64,000 bases of DNA, taken from the NCBI GenBank assembly GCA_905233745.1, contig CAJODA010000002.1:1916-65915 (forward strand), given 5' to 3'. This DNA comes from an uncultured Bacteroidales bacterium. GTDB taxonomy: Bacteria; Bacteroidota; Bacteroidia; Bacteroidales; WCHB1-69. This document shows, in pieces, positions 26,386-47,741 of this stretch. Under the pieces are notes generated by a model. That model had not been told where the DNA came from. It saw nothing but the letters and a program-made list of their open reading frames with translations, and ran no database searches. Position numbers and translations under genes: made by a program. How positions within the stretch are numbered: the stretch's first letter is position 1; every line of letters begins with the position of its first letter.

Positions 26386-26459
26386 TGACCCCTGCAGGAT
26401 TCAAACCTGCAACCTTTTGATCCGTAGTCAAATACTCTATTCAGTTGAGCTAAGGGGCC
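26386..26459 (-). tRNA. tRNA-Arg (anticodon ACG)
   Basis: The minus-strand sequence GGCCCCTTAGCTCAACTGAATAGAGTATTTGACTACGGATCAAAAGGTTGCAGGTTTGAATCCTGCAGGGGTCA folds as a 74-nt cloverleaf with a 7-bp acceptor stem, anticodon loop CTACGGA and a T arm GCAGG/CCTGC. CCA is not encoded. Confidence 0.9.
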
Positions 26460-26592: not shown

Positions 26593-26663
26593 TGAGCTAT
26601 GGTGTAACGGTAGCACTACAGATTTTGGTTCTGCCTGTGTAGGTTCGAATCCTGCTAGCTCAA
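26593..26663 (+). tRNA. tRNA-Gln (anticodon TTG)
   Basis: A 71-nt cloverleaf with acceptor TGAGCTA/TAGCTCA (the U1:A72 pair typical of bacterial tRNA-Gln), D stem GTGT/GCAC, anticodon loop TTTTGGT and T arm GTAGG-TTCGAAT-CCTGC. Confidence 0.85.
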
Positions 26664-39434: not shown

Positions 39435-40511
39435 GTGCTCAGATATATTGTTAAGAAAATATTATACGGACTGCTATTGATGCTCGGTGTGGTAACACTG
39501 GTGTTCTTCCTGTTCACCGTGCTCCCATCCGACCCAGCCCGCATGATGATGGGCCAACGCAGTGACTTGCAAACGGAGCAAGCTATCCGGAAGGAGATGG
39601 GGCTTGACCTGCCGGTCGGCGTTCAATATCTTGCCTACCTGAACGATGTGTCACCGATCTCATGGCACAAAACACAGGATACAGAATCCTTCTTTTACCT
39701 GAATGACAACGATTATCATTATGTGAAAATCCTGCCCTTGGGCAAATCCGCAGTGGTGCTAAAGGCGCCCTATCTCCGGCGCTCCTACCAGAGCAAGCGC
39801 CCTGTTGGTGAGATTATAGCAGAGGCATTCCCGAAAACCGTACTGCTGGCTGTCGTCTCCATCGTGTTTGCCCTCATTGTAGGCATCATCATCGGTATCT
39901 TCTGCGCCCTGTACAAAGGGACCTGGTTCGACCACGTATCCTTGGTCATGGCCACCCTCGGCATGTCGGTACCCTCTTTCTTTGCCGCCATCCTCCTGGC
40001 CTGGATCTTTGCCTTTCTGCTCTCCGACATAACCGGACTAAGCATGTTCGGCAGCCTATACACGGTTGATGACTATGGCAGCGGACAGTATCTGGACCTC
40101 AAGAACCTGATACTTCCAGCCATCACATTGGGAATCCGCCCGCTTGCCGTAGTGGTTGAACTCACCAAAAATTCACTGTTGGACGTGCTGTCGCAGGATT
40201 ACATATGCACAGCGAAGGCAAAGGGGTTGAAGAAAAGCGTCATTATTACAAGACATGCCCTGAAAAACGCCCTGAACCCTGTGGTTACAGCCATCTCCGG
40301 TTGGCTGGCCGGGCTTCTGGCCGGTGCCGTGTTCGTGGAATATATCTTCGACTGGAAGGGCATGGGGGTGGTAATCGTGGATGCCCTCGACAAATACGAC
40401 TTCCCCGTCGTGATGGGCTCCCTGCTGTACGTCTCCATCATCCTCATCATCATCAACATCTTTTGTGATATTATCTACGGCTGGCTCGACCCCCGGGTGA
40501 GTTTGAATTAG
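39435..40511 (+). CDS. ABC transporter permease, Opp/Dpp (DppB-like) family
   Basis: GTG start giving MLRYIVKKILYGLLLMLGVVTLVFFLF, the usual DppB-type N-terminus. It has a long first periplasmic loop and an EAA-like region (TAKAKGLKKSVIITRHALKNAL). Confidence 0.85.
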   Translation: MLRYIVKKILYGLLLMLGVVTLVFFLFTVLPSDPARMMMGQRSDLQTEQAIRKEMGLDLPVGVQYLAYLNDVSPISWHKTQDTESFFYLNDNDYHYVKILPLGKSAVVLKAPYLRRSYQSKRPVGEIIAEAFPKTVLLAVVSIVFALIVGIIIGIFCALYKGTWFDHVSLVMATLGMSVPSFFAAILLAWIFAFLLSDITGLSMFGSLYTVDDYGSGQYLDLKNLILPAITLGIRPLAVVVELTKNSLLDVLSQDYICTAKAKGLKKSVIITRHALKNALNPVVTAISGWLAGLLAGAVFVEYIFDWKGMGVVIVDALDKYDFPVVMGSLLYVSIILIIINIFCDIIYGWLDPRVSLN

Positions 40512-40565
40512 CTTCAATTCTTTTTCTCTGCCCATCATTCGTACCCCCAGTAATCCGATTTTTTG

Positions 40566-40573
40566 TACTTTTG
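40566..40573 (+). promoter_or_regulatory. -7 promoter box TACTTTTG (distal) for purA
   Basis: Matches TAnnTTTG, 34 nt upstream of the purA ATG. Confidence 0.55.
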
Positions 40574-40593
40574 CAGCACGATAAAAACGGAGA

Positions 40594-40601
40594 TATTTTT
40601 G
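40594..40601 (+). promoter_or_regulatory. Second -7-like box TATTTTTG, 6 nt from the purA ATG
   Basis: Matches TAnnTTTG. The spacing would place the transcription start at or next to the ATG. Confidence 0.4.
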
Positions 40602-40607
40602 CATTTT

Positions 40608-41888
40608 ATGGAAAAACAGAAAATAGACATTTTGCTCGGCTTGCAATGGGGGGACGAGGGCAAAGGTAAAATCGTGGATGTGGTCACCCCGCATTATGAT
40701 GTTGTGGCACGATTCCAGGGTGGTCCCAACGCCGGCCATTCTCTGGAATTCAACGGCATACGCCACGTGCTCCACATCATCCCCTCCGGTATCTTTCACA
40801 AGGAGAAGACCAACATCATAGGCAACGGAGTTGTCATCGACCCCGTCACCTTTGAGGAGGAAATCCGTGCGCTGGAGGCCATGGGACTCACCCCCACCGA
40901 CAACCTTTTCGTTTCTAAAAAGGCACACCTCATTCTGCCCACGCACAAGTTGCTGGATGCCGCCTACGAATCCCAAAAGGGCGATATGAAAATCGGCTCC
41001 ACTCTCAAGGGTATCGGACCCACCTATACCGACAAAACCGCCCGGAACGGCCTGCGCGTCTGTGACATTATATCTCCGAATTTTGAAGAAAAATACCACC
41101 AGACCATTGCCCGTCATCAAGAGATTCTGGACGGACTCCATTTCGACTACAGCCAAACACTGCCAGAAATGGAGCGCAAATGGATGGATTCTTTGGCCAC
41201 CTTGAAATCTTTCACGTTCATTGACAGTGAATACGAACTGTTCGACCTCCTCCAAAAGGGCAAATCCGTTTTGGCCGAGGGAGCCCAAGGCACATTGCTG
41301 GACCTGGAGTTTGGTGCATATCCGTTTGTCACCTCCTCCAACACCATTGCCGCCGGAGCCTTTACCGGTTTGGGCCTTGACCCGCATTTTGCCGGAAAGG
41401 TTATCGGCATTGTGAAAGCCTACTGTACCCGTGTGGGTAGCGGTCCCTTCCCCACAGAACTGTTCGATACCACCGGTGAACAGCTGCGCAAACAGGGCAA
41501 TGAATATGGCGCCACCACCGGACGTCCGCGCCGTTGCGGATGGCTTGACCTCGTGGCTCTCAAGTACGCCCTCATGGTGAACGGTGTCACCGACATCGCC
41601 CTCACGAAAGCCGATGTAATGGACAATTTCGAGACTATCAATATCTGCACCGCTTACAAGGTCAACGGTCAGCTTACCACCAGAATGCCCACCGACCCGG
41701 ATGCCACAATAGAGCCCGTTTACACACCACTGAAAGGCTGGATGCAGAACATCAGCCAGTGCAAAAGCTATGAGGCACTACCTGCGACCTTCAAGGATTA
41801 TATCCGATTCATCGAAGAAGAGACCCGAACCAAAGTCTCCATCGTTTCTGTCGGCCCAGACCGCGACGCTACCATTTTCAGAGAATAA
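40608..41888 (+). CDS. purA: Adenylosuccinate synthase
   Basis: Start reset to MEKQKIDILLGLQWGDEGKGKIVD. GPNAGH, TTGRPRRCGW and the C-terminal SVGPDR are present. Confidence 0.95.
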   Translation: MEKQKIDILLGLQWGDEGKGKIVDVVTPHYDVVARFQGGPNAGHSLEFNGIRHVLHIIPSGIFHKEKTNIIGNGVVIDPVTFEEEIRALEAMGLTPTDNLFVSKKAHLILPTHKLLDAAYESQKGDMKIGSTLKGIGPTYTDKTARNGLRVCDIISPNFEEKYHQTIARHQEILDGLHFDYSQTLPEMERKWMDSLATLKSFTFIDSEYELFDLLQKGKSVLAEGAQGTLLDLEFGAYPFVTSSNTIAAGAFTGLGLDPHFAGKVIGIVKAYCTRVGSGPFPTELFDTTGEQLRKQGNEYGATTGRPRRCGWLDLVALKYALMVNGVTDIALTKADVMDNFETINICTAYKVNGQLTTRMPTDPDATIEPVYTPLKGWMQNISQCKSYEALPATFKDYIRFIEEETRTKVSIVSVGPDRDATIFRE

Positions 41889-41894
41889 CCTGAC

Positions 41895-44800
41895 ATGTAC
41901 AAGCATCTTCTCGTTATCTGCACCCTGATTTGGTGTTTGTTCCTACCCACAAACAGCCAAGGGCAGTCGTTAGCGGATGAGCAGGCTTTTGTCTCCTCTC
42001 TCCAAGAGCAAGTACAATATCAATATCAGCAATACCGGAACCGCAATGTGCCCATCTGTTCCCTGTCTGTTCAAATTGAAAGTACAGACGATTACATTAT
42101 GGCATCATCCATGGGTAGCCTAACGCGCAATCTGCACCAAACCCGGCGTACGCTCGTTTTGAATATGCTCGTTGGGGATTTGCAAAAAGGCAATATTACC
42201 AGCGGAACTTCAGCTGGCAAAACAATCCTCCTGCCCCTTGATTATAACACTCAAGCCATCAAACGGATACTGGACCGCGAGGTCAGGGCGGTTTATAATA
42301 AAGCTGAAAAAGAATTTCTGAGCCGACAGGATCTGGAATGGATAGAGAAAAGAGACTCCGAACCATATCAGCCGGAAATCGAGGAACCCACAATCACCGA
42401 TGTAACACTCCCCTCCAATGCAGAGATTTCCACAGATGCATGCGCAGCTATGCTGAGAAGAAGCACCTCTCTGTGGAACACTTTCGGTTCCGACATTCAA
42501 GGCAGCGCCTCCTTACAATATATATATACACGTCACTACGGTTTTCAAAGCAACGGAACCGTTTCCATTAAAGAGAACCATGCCACCACTCTTACCCTTT
42601 CGGCCATCATGACAGACAAGGAAGGGTTTGAGATTCCTCTTGAAAAGAACTTCCTGGCCGAATACCCCGCCGATCTTCCAGATGAAAACACGATACTACA
42701 GGAAGAGACCTCCCTGTTTGAACAGCTCCAACAGTTGGCCGACGTGCCCGCCGCCAAAGCTTCAATCTGCCCTGTACTGCTCTCAAACCAAGCGGCGGCA
42801 CTCACCCTTTTTGCCATACATCACATCTATCCTTTCAATGATAATCAGCAATTTGCTATAAAACAGGACCCCTCACATTTTACGATAATCGCCAACAATG
42901 CCACCAGAGAGCATGAATTACTCCAACGCTTGAAGCAAACCATCAAAAGCCAGAACAAGGAATTCGGCTATTGGATAAAGCTGTTGCGATTCTCTGAAAA
43001 TGGAGATTTGATACCACAAATCCTGTATCGGGTGTATCCTGATGAGCGCGCCAACGAATTGGTCCGCGGGAACATCGCAATCACCCTGTCGCCACTCACA
43101 TGGCCACAAATATCGGTTTATGGCAATGAACCCGACTGCGCCATAGCTCCCTGCGGACCCTTCAACACACAACCTACTGTATGTTGTGCCCCATCCGTTC
43201 TTTGCCCATCAATGGAACTTCTGCCCTGCCAAGGCCAAGCCAAGTTCCACCTGCTGGCTCCCGCGCAAAAGGAAAGACAATCCGCCAACTCACAGTTCTC
43301 CACCCTAATCACTCAAATCGCGCAGGAAGAGATTGGCAACTTTTTCGAAGACACCAATCTGCTGGATTCCCCCCAGCCTTATGACGTGGAATATTTAGTC
43401 ACAGACGCCCTTACCTACACCGTGCAAAGCTCATTAGGAAGCACCCTGGCCTTCAGCGAACAGCCCCTGCGAAGTGTAAACACGCACCTGCTGGTGGGCA
43501 ACGACCGGCTAAACAATGAACATCTCTCGCTTTCGCAAAATGGGACTCCCCATCCTTTGCCATTGGATAATGATTATGCCAACACCCTTGAGGCTCTGCA
43601 TCAAGCCACTGAAAATGCATACAAGCAGGCGCTTCTCGACTATTCCCACAAGCTCAGAATCCTGGACAATCTGCCAGCCGAGCAACAGAAAAACCGGACA
43701 CCCGACCGCTCTGAAGCCAAACGGCAGTCCTTCTTCCTGGAGGAGACCCACGAAACCGCAAACCCGACCCGACTGCAGAACCTCGCCAATGAGCTATCAG
43801 CCCAATTCAATCCCAAAGCAGACGAATTGCTTTGTTCGGGAGTAAACATCTTTGTCTTTCAATCCACTGCATATTTTATCTCTGCAAAGAACATCCAATA
43901 CGCCCAACCTTTCAATCTCTACTATATCCAATGGTTTGCCGAGGTGGAAACAGCAGGGGGAGACACGTTAAGGGATTGTTCTTACCGGGTTTTTCGCAAA
44001 ATGGAGGAAATCCCTGACTTGCGCAACGAGATAACAGCCATGGCAGAAATCCTGCTGACCTTTAAAAAGGCTCCGAAATTGCCCCAATTATACAACGGTC
44101 CTGTACTCTTTTCCGGGGAGGCGGTATCCGCATTGCTATCAGATGCTCTATTAGAAGGGACGCCCTCGCTTATCGCCACGCACGAACCCGCAGACAAGAC
44201 AGGCTATTCTGCCAATTATTGGGAAAAAATGAAAAACAAGCAGATTGCCAGTCCTATTTGGAACGTATCAGCGAATTATGATAAGGACACCTATGACAAC
44301 ACGCCGCTAATAGGCCACTATACTGTGGATGCGGAAGGAGTTCCCGTAATGCGGGAGACAGAACTGATCCGCCGTGGGATCCTGAACGAGATGCTCTCTT
44401 CCCGCAGTGCTACAGTTACTGGAAAATACTCTAACGGGCACCGACAGCTGGCCATATGCAATGGCCAGTTGGAAACCTGCACCGGAGCAGGAATACTGGA
44501 GGTGAGCGGCTCACGTGCCCTGGAAGAGGACGCCTTATTCAAAGAGTTCCTCAAACAGGCCAGGGCGTCCGGCCATAAGTACGCCTACCAGATTGTTAAG
44601 CTGGGCTATCGTGAAGATCAAAATGGGCAACGTGTCGCCTGCCCTCTCTATGCTTACCGAATCAAAACATCCAACGGAAACAGGGAGCCCATCCGTATCT
44701 CAAACGGGGAGCAAATGGACCTCATGTTGCTAAATCGTGCTACAGCCGTATCTTCTTGCAAAAATGTTTTCAACATACTAACCTCCCCGCAAGGCAAAGC

Positions 44801-44897
44801 ATGTAAATCGATGGAAACACCTATAAATGGCATTTCTACGAGCATTATAGTTCCTGCCCATGTGTTATTGAACCTTTTCCTCCTCCCTCCGGAATAA
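41895..44897 (+). CDS. Exported 1000-aa protein with two tandem TldD/PmbA-like modules (metallopeptidase-TldD-related, no HExxxH)
   Basis: Signal peptide MYKHLLVICTLIWCLFLPTNSQGQ. An internal duplication is visible by eye (see findings). The C-terminal module carries the PmbA/TldD-like block GPVLFSGEAVSALL...IGHYTVDAEGVPVMRETELIRRGIL...TGKYSNG. It starts 6 nt after purA. Confidence 0.5.
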   Translation: MYKHLLVICTLIWCLFLPTNSQGQSLADEQAFVSSLQEQVQYQYQQYRNRNVPICSLSVQIESTDDYIMASSMGSLTRNLHQTRRTLVLNMLVGDLQKGNITSGTSAGKTILLPLDYNTQAIKRILDREVRAVYNKAEKEFLSRQDLEWIEKRDSEPYQPEIEEPTITDVTLPSNAEISTDACAAMLRRSTSLWNTFGSDIQGSASLQYIYTRHYGFQSNGTVSIKENHATTLTLSAIMTDKEGFEIPLEKNFLAEYPADLPDENTILQEETSLFEQLQQLADVPAAKASICPVLLSNQAAALTLFAIHHIYPFNDNQQFAIKQDPSHFTIIANNATREHELLQRLKQTIKSQNKEFGYWIKLLRFSENGDLIPQILYRVYPDERANELVRGNIAITLSPLTWPQISVYGNEPDCAIAPCGPFNTQPTVCCAPSVLCPSMELLPCQGQAKFHLLAPAQKERQSANSQFSTLITQIAQEEIGNFFEDTNLLDSPQPYDVEYLVTDALTYTVQSSLGSTLAFSEQPLRSVNTHLLVGNDRLNNEHLSLSQNGTPHPLPLDNDYANTLEALHQATENAYKQALLDYSHKLRILDNLPAEQQKNRTPDRSEAKRQSFFLEETHETANPTRLQNLANELSAQFNPKADELLCSGVNIFVFQSTAYFISAKNIQYAQPFNLYYIQWFAEVETAGGDTLRDCSYRVFRKMEEIPDLRNEITAMAEILLTFKKAPKLPQLYNGPVLFSGEAVSALLSDALLEGTPSLIATHEPADKTGYSANYWEKMKNKQIASPIWNVSANYDKDTYDNTPLIGHYTVDAEGVPVMRETELIRRGILNEMLSSRSATVTGKYSNGHRQLAICNGQLETCTGAGILEVSGSRALEEDALFKEFLKQARASGHKYAYQIVKLGYREDQNGQRVACPLYAYRIKTSNGNREPIRISNGEQMDLMLLNRATAVSSCKNVFNILTSPQGKACKSMETPINGISTSIIVPAHVLLNLFLLPPE

Positions 44898-45027: not shown

Positions 45028-45951
45028 TTGTTAAAAAACAGATGCTTAATAGACCCTGCGGATTTCACTCGCGAAGAATTTCGCGAAATATTTGATTTGG
45101 CACATCAGATTATTGCGGATCCGGAAAAATACAGTAAGAGTTGCGAAGGGAAAATCCTAGCAACTCTTTTTTATGAACCGAGCACACGTACACGCTTCAG
45201 TTTTGAGGCAGCCATGTTGCGTCTAGGCGGTAAGGTGATTGGCTTTTCGGAGCCCAACTCCAGTTCCACCGCAAAGGGCGAGAGCATTGCTGACACGTTG
45301 CGCACCATCGAATGCTACGCGGACATCGCGGCGATGCGCCATCCCAAGGAGGGTGCGCCACGTATGGCCAGCCACTACATCCAAATGCCGCTGATCAACG
45401 CCGGCGACGGCGGACACCAGCACCCCACACAAACCCTCACCGACATCCTCACTATTGAAAGACTGCGCGGCAATGTGGAAAACAAGACCTACGGATTCTG
45501 CGGTGACCTTAAGTTCGGACGTACCGTCCACTCACTGGTCAAATTCCTCAGCAACTATGAGGGAGTGAAGTTCATCTTCATCTCTCCCGAAGAGCTTCGC
45601 GTGCCGGAATACATCCGCGAAGAGATTGTAAAGAAAAAAGGCATCCCCTATGAAGAGGTGGACCAGATGGAACCCTATATGGGCCAGCTCGACTTCTTAT
45701 ACATGACCCGTGTGCAGCGTGAACGCTTCTTCAACGAGGAAGACTACATTCGCTTGAAAGACCGCTTCATCCTCGATGCCGAGAAGATGACCTACGCACG
45801 CCCTGACACCTACATTCTGCACCCGCTGCCGCGCGTGAACGAAATCAGCACTGAAGTGGATAGCGATCCTCGTGCCCAATACTTCAACCAGGCACGAAAC
45901 GGCATGTATGTGCGCATGGCCCTCATCTGCAAACTTTTAGGAATATATTAA
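45028..45951 (+). CDS. pyrB: Aspartate carbamoyltransferase catalytic subunit
   Basis: TTG start. There is no in-frame ATG near the conserved N-terminus (M)[16 protein letters not shown]. The motifs EPSTRTR, HPTQ, and HPLPRVNEI are present. Confidence 0.9.
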
Positions 45952-46044
45952 TCTGATATATGGCTATTAGCCGCTAGCTAAAGCCCAACAGCTAACTGCC
46001 TACAGCCAAAGTCTTAAGAAAAATCATCAAAAATCAGAAACACC

Positions 46045-46479
46045 ATGTTAGAAATCAACAGTATAGAAAGAGGTATTGTCATTGACCATATCAAAGCCGG
46101 TTATGGCATGACCGTTTTCAACTATTTGCATCTTGAAAACGCCGATTATAATGTCGCCCTCATCATGAACGCATTCAGCCTCAAAATGGGGAAAAAGGAT
46201 ATTATCAAGATCAACAATGTCATTGACATCAACTACGATTTTCTAGGTCTCATCGACCCTAATGCCACGGTGAACATCATTGAAAACGGGAAAACTGTAA
46301 AGAAGGTAAAGCTGGAAGTTCCACAGACCATCACCAATATCATTCACTGCAAGAACCCGCGCTGCGTCACCTCCGTGGAGCACTACTTCGACCATGTGTT
46401 CCATCTGGTCGATAAGGAGAAACGTTCCTACCGCTGCGAGTACTGCGATGATATCGTGGTGCCGTATCCGAACAAATAG
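46045..46479 (+). CDS. pyrI: Aspartate carbamoyltransferase regulatory subunit
   Basis: 144 aa with [10 protein letters not shown] and the zinc domain CKNPRCVTS...YRCEYCD. Confidence 0.9.
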
Positions 46480-46565: not shown

Positions 46566-46636
46566 GGTCTCTTGGCCGAGTGGTTAGGTACCGGTCTGCA
46601 AAACCGTTGACTCCAGTTCGAATCTGGAAGAGACCT
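46566..46636 (+). tRNA. tRNA-Cys (anticodon GCA)
   Basis: A 71-nt cloverleaf with a perfect 7-bp acceptor stem GGTCTCT/AGAGACC, anticodon loop CTGCAAA, T arm TCCAG-TTCGAAT-CTGGA, and discriminator U73, which is characteristic of tRNA-Cys. Confidence 0.9.
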
Positions 46637-46672: not shown

Positions 46673-47482
46673 TTACAACACCACTATCTTCAGGCTCTTG
46701 CCAGCTCGTATCATATCTGATTTCAGATTATTCCACTGCTTGAGTTGTTTTACGGTTACATGATATTTCCTGGCAATGGAAGACAATGTCTCTCCCTCTT
46801 TTATTTTATGATACACAACCTTTTGCGTTTGGACAGCCGGCTGGTTTGACGGAGCAGCTCCCGCTTCAGCCTCAGTAGAGACCACCTGCACAGTGTCTGT
46901 TGTCGTCGTATCTTCCGCCAGCGCGGAATGGTCCGCTTCAACTAAAAAAATACGGCCTTCAGCATCACAGTCCACAATACGACGCGCACCCGCATACGTG
47001 GAAGCATACCATCTGCCCGTTGAGCGGTCCAGTCGTACTCCCTTTCCATACGTCGAGGCGTGTATGAATGTGAAATTATGCGCGGAATCCACATCTACCA
47101 CCATACCCGAATGACCGACATACCCTTTCCCACGGTACCAAAAAACCAAATCGCCCTTCCGGATATCATTCTTCTCCACCGCCTTGCCCATCCGAATCTG
47201 GTCGCGTGAACTGCGCCCAAGCTTGACTCCGAACTGTCCGAAAACATAGTACATGAAACCGGAACAGTCAAACGAACGGGGTCCGATACCCCGAGCCCTG
47301 TAGGGGCTTCCCAACTTGGTCTTAGCAAATGCTATAATAGAATCAATCTTTGGGCAAACCTCCCCATTGGCAGCGGATACATCTTCCAGCTCCATTTTCT
47401 TTTCAATTTCTTGTCCAAACCCATTCTGTATGATAAGGATGGACAATATTGTCACAATAATATAACGTATGTTTCTCTTCAT
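46673..47482 (-). CDS. NlpC/P60 (C40) cell-wall peptidase with a C-terminal LysM domain
   Basis: Start reset to MKRNIRYIIVTILSILIIQNGFGQ (signal peptide). The catalytic Cys context is FDCSGFMYYVF and the His context is GHSGMVV. The LysM region reads YHKIKEGETLSSIARKYHVTVKQLKQWNNL. Confidence 0.85.
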   Translation of the reverse strand: MKRNIRYIIVTILSILIIQNGFGQEIEKKMELEDVSAANGEVCPKIDSIIAFAKTKLGSPYRARGIGPRSFDCSGFMYYVFGQFGVKLGRSSRDQIRMGKAVEKNDIRKGDLVFWYRGKGYVGHSGMVVDVDSAHNFTFIHASTYGKGVRLDRSTGRWYASTYAGARRIVDCDAEGRIFLVEADHSALAEDTTTTDTVQVVSTEAEAGAAPSNQPAVQTQKVVYHKIKEGETLSSIARKYHVTVKQLKQWNNLKSDMIRAGKSLKIVVL

Positions 47483-47550
47483 TTTCCTAAAAACGGCAAA
47501 AATAATAAAAAGATAGAAAAATGCGTTAAGAACCCGACCCGAGAATTTTG

Positions 47551-47558
47551 TACATTTG
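47551..47558 (+). promoter_or_regulatory. -7 promoter box TACATTTG for the small lipoprotein gene
   Basis: Matches TAnnTTTG, 18 nt upstream of the ATG at 47577. Confidence 0.55.
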
Positions 47559-47576
47559 CACCCATTTATTACAACA

Positions 47577-47741
47577 ATGAAAAAACACTTTTGGATTTTT
47601 GCTGTATTACTCCTGTTGGGCACCTCCTGCTCCAGGAAAATAATCGGGGCGAGACCGCACCGAAAGGAACGCAACTGTGGATGTGAGTATAAAACCAACC
47701 CTCAACCAGCTGATTCCACGCTGGCCTATCAATCATTCTAA
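47577..47741 (+). CDS. Small (54-aa) basic lipoprotein, unannotated-type micro-ORF
   Basis: MKKHFWIFAVLLLLGTSC (signal plus lipobox) followed by SRKIIGARPHRKERNCGCEYKTNPQPADSTLAYQSF. It has its own -7 box, and its stop codon lies 1 nt before the next ATG. Confidence 0.55.
   Translation: MKKHFWIFAVLLLLGTSCSRKIIGARPHRKERNCGCEYKTNPQPADSTLAYQSF

Follow-up and report, generated by a model that had tools for sequence, protein, structure and literature searches.

TldD and TldE make up a widespread and poorly understood cage protease, the only studied forms of which are cytoplasmic and consist of two chains. What, then, is a gene that appears to join both kinds of module in a single exported chain, with no metal site in either? 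Such a gene is present in a 64,000-nucleotide (nt) stretch of DNA from an uncultured Bacteroidales bacterium (NCBI GenBank assembly GCA_905233745.1, contig CAJODA010000002.1; hereafter the window), in which it occupies positions 41895..44897 of the + strand, immediately after purA. We refer to it as gene X. It runs from an ATG to a stop codon, the latter included in these coordinates, and encodes 1000 amino acids (aa). A preliminary description had proposed this open reading frame (ORF) from the sequence alone and had viewed its product as an exported tandem of two diverged TldD/PmbA-like modules lacking the metal site. The ORF list and the translation bear out the frame, and all sequence blocks quoted in that description are found at the residues given.

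Taking the evidence below together, we consider it likely that gene X encodes an exported, catalytically dead TldD-TldE fusion that is maintained by selection; much less confidence attaches to any specific role, be it in ligand binding, in sequestration, or as a partner or regulator. The fold and the family are already known, and exported fusions of this layout are widely represented in databases. What appears to be undescribed is the inactivated, core-deleted form together with a stepwise series of orthologues at the purA locus. The locus reveals an exported branch of TldD/TldE, occurring as gene pairs and as single-chain fusions. Within this branch, the catalytic subunit has undergone inactivation and stepwise trimming at a single syntenic position while selection persisted. 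A literature search, limited in coverage, returned nothing on exported, fused, twin-arginine translocation (Tat)-dependent, vesicle-associated or pseudo-protease forms of TldD/E. The analysis also supplies a specific annotation for proteins labelled "hypothetical".

Two TldD/E-type halves and a predicted export signal

Behind its signal peptide, the protein divides into an N half (41964..43229, +; aa 24-445), a linker (43230..43295, +; aa 446-467) and a C half (43296..44894, +; aa 468-1000). The preliminary description had seen an internal duplication with an offset of about 443 residues, which single sequences fail to reveal: a BLASTP comparison of half against half was not significant (best E value, 0.062). 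Profiles, on the other hand, recovered it clearly. With a 13-member family alignment split at residue 455, the two halves matched each other in hhalign with a probability of 98.5% and an E value of 1.6e-15, over 403 aligned columns and at an offset of ~440 residues. The alignment contains one large gap in the N half, which lies opposite C-half residues ~760-860.

Domain searches recognized only one of the two halves. The Pfam family PF19289 (PmbA_TldD_3rd) matches aa 736-850 of the C half (44100..44444, +) with an E value of 1e-5 and 25.3 bits against a cut-off of 22, in a stretch that includes the motifs IGHYTVDAEG and YSNGH, shows a conservation of 0.64-0.68 and corresponds to what the N half has lost by deletion. 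No Pfam match was obtained for the N half alone, which is linked through profiles to the Pfam-positive A subunits described below. NCBIfam gave no more than sub-threshold TldD matches (15.5 bits versus the 635 required), and neither the C half nor the family profile retrieved anything relevant when used as a sequence query against the PDB.

Predicted structures brought the N half into the same family. An AlphaFold2 (AF2) model of the whole chain had a predicted local distance difference test (pLDDT) score of 78 and a predicted template modelling (pTM) score of 0.79. In a Foldseek search of the PDB, all 16 of its significant matches (E values, 7e-15 to 1e-11) were TldD, TldE or PmbA structures (6J6A, 5NJ5, 5NJ9, 5NJB, 5NJC, 5NJF, 1VL4, 3QTD, 1VPB and 3TV9), with the next matches at E > 1e-3. 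Because a full-length search cannot tell which half was matched, we modelled the N half (aa 24-455) alone, obtaining a pLDDT of 85.5 and a pTM of 0.80. Again 16/16 significant matches were TldD/TldE/PmbA, the best being the Escherichia coli TldD chains 5njf_C, 5njc_A and 5nj5_A (E ~1e-15; TM score, 0.58). For the PDB matches of both models, target-normalized TM scores were 0.5-0.6, at E values of 1e-11 to 1e-15. Judged by these matches, the models have the two-domain fold of the superfamily, in which helices accompany a long, curved antiparallel sheet and the C-terminal domain is rich in beta structure. Both halves are therefore of the TldD/E fold, and the two modules of the preliminary description are supported alike by the profile comparison, the C-half Pfam match and the structure matches. 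The pTM of the whole chain further suggests a fixed mutual arrangement of the halves in the model.

Set beside E. coli TldD/TldE (PDB 5NJ5 and related entries; Ghilarov et al. 2017, PMC5810440), each half of gene X has the same two-domain fold (Foldseek E values, 1e-14 to 1e-15), and both systems combine a catalytic-type with a non-catalytic module; the DxEG and NG(H) motifs are kept in the C half. The differences are considerable. Gene X encodes one chain instead of two and an exported instead of a cytoplasmic protein, and identity is only 12-14%. Neither the HExxxH motif nor the Cys ligand has been kept, and a deletion has removed 107 residues from the catalytic domain. In addition, the ancestral exported modules described below are each ~100 residues longer than those of E. 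coli.

Export is indicated by the first 23 residues (41895..41963, +), in which inspection points to a predicted Sec signal peptide. The N terminus reads MYKH, followed by LLVICTLIWCLFL, a hydrophobic core of 13 residues, and by PTNSQG before QS. It thus combines a basic N-terminal end, Kyte-Doolittle window means of up to 2.9 and a c-region of small residues, with likely cleavage between SQG and QS leaving an N-terminal Gln. Cleavage before Gln is consistent with signal peptides of Bacteroidetes. The layout is conserved across the family, where it ends in ...AQ-S-L-A-D-E. The signal peptide of the preliminary description is accordingly retained, and the window clade, with its conserved signal-like segment (by inspection), departs from canonical TldD/TldE, which are cytoplasmic and carry none. 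Export by Sec and processing by signal peptidase I would deliver the protein to the periplasm, from its N terminus the most likely location. An identity as lipoprotein or as cargo of the type IX secretion system (T9SS) was considered and rejected: a Pfam scan found neither a T9SS C-terminal domain (Por_Secre_tail) nor any domain besides PF19289 in the protein, and a canonical lipobox is likewise missing, with the Cys of the h-region shifting in position across the family.

Exported gene pairs and active fusions

Where might such a chain have come from? A scan of species-representative genomes for relatives beyond the close family uncovered split pairs, that is, two adjacent and often overlapping genes of ~550-610 aa each, both starting with a signal-peptide-like N-terminal segment. 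These pairs, at loci L012-L017, L019 and L020, belong to metagenome-assembled genomes (MAGs) of Bryobacteraceae, other Acidobacteriota, Terriglobia, Myxococcales, and some Bacteroidales and Rikenellaceae. In all of them, HE[IV][FL]GH and, near the C terminus, GxCGAE are present in the first gene, A, whereas the second gene, B, has neither. PF19289 matches A and B alike, with A subunits scoring 96.6 bits. In E. coli, the metal of TldD is held by His262, His267 and Cys454, and TldE is without the site (PMC5810440). Because the metal ligands occur only in the first gene of the pair, we take gene A as the counterpart of TldD and gene B as that of TldE. In one B-type subunit, of a Myxococcales pair (L020, 2476-4494), we noted a twin-arginine-like motif, RREFL, in the N-terminal region; the others are Sec-type in appearance.

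Each half of gene X sides with a different subunit. In hhalign, the N half matches A subunits at an E value of 2.2e-38 and B subunits at 3e-24, and the C half matches B subunits at 7.9e-73 and A subunits at 4.1e-35. With the N half closest to A and the C half closest to B, gene X is therefore an A-B fusion in operon order. Hidden Markov models (HMMs) of A and B likewise map in this order along the protein, the B model matching the C half at positions 39-569 with 286 bits. The N half derives from a catalytic, TldD-like subunit A whose active site is gone. The C half is a full-length non-catalytic subunit B of TldE/PmbA type, closest to the motif-less B subunits and covalently joined to a TldD-derived module.

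For the C-half type, the best structural matches are TldE/PmbA homodimers (1VL4, 3QTD, 1VPB, 3TV9, 6J6A), which form hollow shells and, like gene X, have no recognizable active site. They are cytoplasmic and ~440 aa long, whereas the product of gene X is exported and asymmetric, a fusion in which a former TldD, now truncated, makes up the first module.

That distant relatives carry two separate genes might raise the suspicion that two neighboring genes were wrongly joined in gene X by assembly or gene calling. We find this hardly credible, as the 1000-codon frame is uninterrupted in independent ENA, Logan, NCBI and JGI assemblies and in five species-level MAGs. Moreover, the junction consists of a linker instead of a stop codon and a second signal peptide: residues 446-467, with a conservation of 0.39-0.52 and a pLDDT of ~70-76, sit where the separate B subunits carry a signal peptide of their own.

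True fusions are indeed frequent, and in many Bacteroidales they are ~1100-1160 aa long and have an intact site. Searching 1.84 billion representative proteins with a profile yielded 2143 relatives, 598 of them at E < 1e-30. Many of the best 150 of the 2143 are fused proteins of ~1060-1190 aa with a signal peptide, HExxxH near residue 310 and the Cys motif; B-type single subunits are also included. The nearest relatives outside the window clade are fused proteins of 1080-1150 aa. When one active fusion (L009, 1159 aa) served as the query, more than 1200 clusters were found, mostly from Bacteroidales MAGs, among them Lentimicrobiaceae, Dysgonamonadaceae and Candidatus Symbiothrix. In NCBI/JGI, exported pairs and fusions of this type go by "metallopeptidase TldD-related protein", "TldD/PmbA family protein" or "predicted Zn-dependent protease", and some of the clusters are listed as "hypothetical protein". 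The window clade is small, with 7 clusters at 50% identity which, where named, are "hypothetical protein"; gene X itself has 12 full-length homologues, with 41-99% identity. The profile search, the order of the HMM matches and the nesting of the window clade within fused forms in a tree all place gene X in this exported A-B fusion family. Surveyed in this way, the fused architecture highlighted by the preliminary description turns out to be common in Bacteroidales with HExxxH intact. The unusual feature of gene X is the loss of the site, not fusion or export.

From these comparisons, the ancestral state, which persists in Acidobacteriota, Myxococcales and some Bacteroidales, is two adjacent exported genes, A with HExxxH and the Cys ligand, and B. 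The two became fused in Bacteroidales in the order A then B; in one lineage, which carries the gene directly after purA, the catalytic half decayed, with the TldE-like half left intact.

Active site and selection at the purA-linked locus

The exported pairs and active fusions are direct homologues of gene X and share its signal-peptide-first layout and A-then-B order. They keep HE[IV][FL]GH, GxCGAE and a full-length A; the window clade lacks all three metal ligands and 107 residues. A motif scan of the gene X protein found no HExxH, no HExxxH nor any H-x(2-4)-H, the only H-E dipeptides being at residues 340, 619 and 763, so no metal motif had been overlooked when the site was first described as missing. 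The A model matches the protein at positions 8-310 and 418-543 only; the 107 positions in between (311-417) are absent. What remains is a scar at 42810..42872 (+; aa ~306-326), in which ~20 residues stand in place of ~107. The reduction noted in the preliminary description is therefore real, with its estimate of ~120 residues cut to ~30 replaced by these figures.

The deleted segment comprises the metal-binding central helix and the strands that follow it, up to the SNGHGR...RQSN region. The break starts exactly at HExxxH: FFHEIFGH of the active forms aligns with LFAIHHI (residues 305-311) in gene X, and both MAFFT and hhalign place a remnant, F-A-I-H-H-I (42810..42827, +; aa 306-311), opposite H-E-I-F-G-H. 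The columns aligned with HExxxH are not conserved within the window clade. The same is true for the column of the Cys ligand, at which the window protein has C421 (APCGP). Overall, the metal-ligand columns are absent or variable in 17/17 clade members. Gene X has thus neither the HExxxH motif nor the conserved third ligand, Cys, that mark TldD (MEROPS M103, formerly U62). Since the motif, the core and the conserved Cys are gone, and a B-type C half never had the ligands, the protein is inactive by the criteria of TldD catalysis. E. coli TldD holds its substrate as an extra beta-strand in a cleft beside the metal (PMC5810440); this cleft lies within the deleted region, and binding in the ancestral manner is therefore unlikely in the window clade.

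Three other cysteines caught our attention. C55, C430 and C437 (42057-42059, 43182-43184 and 43203-43205) are invariant in the 13-member alignment and absent from active A subunits, and C55 and C430 are invariant also in a wider set of 14 clade sequences. C430 and C437 face each other across a predicted beta-hairpin formed by strands 428-432 and 435-444, and a disulfide between them is possible for this reason.

Loss of the site can be followed across relatives of different lengths. All subclades examined have the gene immediately behind purA, separated from it by 6-13 nt or overlapping it by 4 nt (L025, L010, L026, L023 and L024, and L001 and L003-L008 of the window clade), and wherever the contig extends far enough, pyrB and pyrI follow, an order seen in L001-L003 and L024. 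The shared syntenic position implies that the different states are orthologues. At one end is a protein of 1140 aa with HEIVGH and the Cys kept (P0018; L025). In forms of ~1070-1100 aa (P0026-28, P0034, P0045 and P0046; L010 and L026), HNxxGH or HHxxGH replaces the catalytic Glu and leaves the metal ligands, including the Cys, in place; the motif is HNLLGH/HNLVGH in the orthologues at L010 (4777-8067) and L026 (5001-8297). A third group of ~1080 aa has a full-length N half from which the motif is gone, reading QYALTP or QHSLVP instead (P0019, with QYALTP, at L023; P0021-23). The window clade with its core deletion follows at ~1000 aa (window, L001, L003-L008). Finally, a form of ~800-850 aa consists of the N-terminal domain of A and a complete B (P0033, 823 aa; L024, 5001-7472). 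Further proteins of 800-850 aa are P0032, P0035, P0038, P0040, P0042, P0048, P0053, P0057 and P0073; such forms keep ~280 aa of the TldD-like module, take the purA-X-pyrB-pyrI position at L024 and include one named "metallopeptidase TldD-related protein" by NCBI.

In a neighbor-joining tree of the B part, the series forms one clade, sister to active fusions such as L009, P0020 and P0024. As only the catalytic Glu is replaced in them, the HNxxGH orthologues are similar to E263A, an engineered E. coli TldD mutant that serves as a substrate trap and retains bound peptide (PDB 5NJC). By this analogy, they suggest that the lineage passed through a stage of binding without cutting. Together, the natural variants, which range from an intact site through the Glu-to-Asn trap, loss of the motif and deletion of the core to loss of a domain, would allow the TldE-type half, or the shell, to be probed apart from proteolysis.

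Shrinkage of this kind, with lengths of 1140, ~1090, ~1000 and ~820 aa among orthologues, is also what one would see of a relic without function, a gene that is drifting toward loss and stays open by chance or through polarity constraints within the purA transcript. The pace of change points the same way: compared with window relatives, gene X has 40-57% identity, whereas purA has 84-90%, pyrB 98-99% and pyrI 93-98%, meaning that gene X evolves 10-20 times faster than its neighbors. Nonetheless, we regard a relic as very unlikely, for the ORF, of ~970-1016 codons, is intact in every clade member (12 homologues, 5 further cluster representatives and five MAG loci) at aa identities down to 40%. 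Substitution patterns argue likewise. Between the window and its relatives, synonymous sites are saturated, and the proportion of nonsynonymous differences (pN, 0.25-0.46) is below that of synonymous ones (pS, 0.72-0.85) in both halves and for all pairs. Because of this saturation, we turned to closer MAG pairs for the ratio of nonsynonymous to synonymous rates (dN/dS). Among three rumen MAGs (L005, L006, L008), the N half has a ratio of 0.15-0.20, the C half one of 0.10-0.16 and the flanks one of 0.02-0.06; a relic should approach ~1. Averaged over columns, conservation is equal in the two halves (N half, 0.55; C half, 0.58), 81 invariant residues are spread over both, and the signal peptide is conserved. 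Purifying selection thus maintains both halves of gene X. For these MAG pairs, dS of gene X (0.65-1.7) is 2-5 times that of purA/pyrB (0.15-0.40), which may reflect exchange of old alleles or weaker codon-usage constraint.

Selection on both halves would equally be expected if the protein were still an enzyme, either through a new catalytic center, for example in the TldE-like half, or as a TldE-like partner acting in trans on an active TldD-like subunit whose gene lies at another place in the genome. We hold this to be improbable. The C half does keep the invariant polar motifs DAEG and YSNGH together with the clade-specific H569, D604-R605-S606 and R837, but DAEG and SNGH are common to catalytic and non-catalytic subunits, which makes them motifs of the fold and not of a new site, and no metalloprotease-like constellation of His, Glu, Cys and Asp was found. 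Similarly, the need of E. coli TldD for TldE in order to be active (PMC5810440) would leave room for a partner in trans; here, however, the fused N half fills the partner's place, no second TldD/E-like gene occurs within the 64-kb window, and TldE homodimers are without known activity (PMC5810440).

Several observations nevertheless weigh against reading gene X as a dead, exported TldD-TldE fusion. AF2 is unsure of residues 756-849 (pLDDT, 30-50), the most TldD/E-typical and a well-conserved part of the C half, which also suits the idea of an enzyme. The invariance of H569, D604, R605, S606, D812, R837 and S846-H849 in the C half makes a site of another kind possible. The one figure from which a closed, TldD/E-like packing of the halves may be read is the pTM of the modelled chain. 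Export was judged from the N terminus by eye, and the protein may be in the periplasm, at the surface or in vesicles. A function for gene X is at present deduced from the loss of parts in its sequence. Lastly, our crude neighbor-joining tree puts P0018, with its HEIVGH, inside the dead clade, which makes it uncertain how many losses occurred and in what order.

On balance, we favor an exported TldD-TldE fusion of uncultured gut or rumen Bacteroidales that has lost catalysis and is under selection. Its chain would fold as a closed two-lobed shell, an intramolecular pseudo-heterodimer, and would act without cleaving peptides by the TldD mechanism. A non-catalytic role could be ligand binding or sequestration, or the protein could serve as a regulator or a structural partner. 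Since all orthologues, the 820-aa form included, keep the N-terminal domain of A and a complete B, these are probably the parts on which function depends. The fused, secreted pseudo-heterodimer without metal site envisaged in the preliminary description is supported in this form, with two specifications: it is the once catalytic half that is dead, and the order is TldD-like, then TldE-like. As in pseudoproteases such as the iRhoms and CspC of Clostridioides difficile, whose folds are unrelated, a scaffold has been kept under selection after catalysis was lost.

A bolder and, to our mind, rather doubtful scenario would go further. A gut/rumen lineage of Bacteroidales might have turned an exported cage protease non-catalytic by way of an HNxxGH "substrate-trap" stage and then removed the catalytic core, the gene, which diverges fast, being fixed in a purA-X(-pyrBI) transcription unit. 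If true, gene X would represent a novel type of pseudoprotease in the periplasm or at the surface, for instance a peptide-binding or decoy shell under diversifying pressure, and its relatives would offer a ready-made evolutionary series for dissecting how the TldD/E cage was repurposed.

Genes around gene X

Gene X is flanked by housekeeping genes, namely, ftsA, ftsZ, purA, pyrB and pyrI. Upstream, purA (adenylosuccinate synthetase; 40563..41888, +; Pfam PF00709, E 5e-168) ends with a TAA stop codon at 41888, in agreement with the 6-nt gap to gene X given in the preliminary description. The mechanically called purA frame begins with TTG at 40563 and has 441 aa. The true start is probably ~12-18 codons further down, because the Pfam match sets in at residue 23 and homologues have 423-429 aa. 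Downstream and after a gap of 130 nt, pyrB and pyrI (45028..46479, +) were identified by the Pfam families OTCace_N/OTCace and PyrI/PyrI_C. Scans for promoters and terminators gave nothing beyond shuffled expectation that bears on gene X. A foreign origin of gene X was rejected, its guanine-plus-cytosine content of 0.47-0.51 being similar to that of the flanks.

The active sister forms at L009 and L028 do not adjoin purA: L009 is accompanied by a MutS-like gene and DUF4153, and L028 by DUF1015 and a beta-lactamase-family gene. With housekeeping flanks on one side and mixed contexts of active relatives on the other, we dropped the neighborhood as a clue to the function of gene X. Two single cases involve a TonB-dependent receptor gene, which lies just upstream of the active split A/B pair at L015 (3264-5600) and divergently upstream of purA-X at L026 (1531-3615).

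In related contigs, genes for T9SS cargo occur near gene X (L001, 2520-6560; L003, 465-3812 and 12703-14457). Por_Secre_tail is present in each of their products, namely, an fn3 protein, a gingipain-like Peptidase_C25 and a Peptidase_C10; such cargo fits a proteolytic Bacteroidales host.

Within the window, a permease of OppB/DppB type (BPD_transp_1 plus its N-terminal domain) of the ATP-binding cassette (ABC) class is encoded at 39435-40511, alone between ftsZ and purA. It has no adjoining ABC partner genes among the genes scanned and is not conserved in related loci. We also noted three transfer RNA (tRNA) genes, at 26386-26459 (-), 26593-26663 (+) and 46566-46636 (+). The last of these directly follows pyrI and abuts the 3' end of a convergent NlpC/P60-LysM gene (46673-47698, -).

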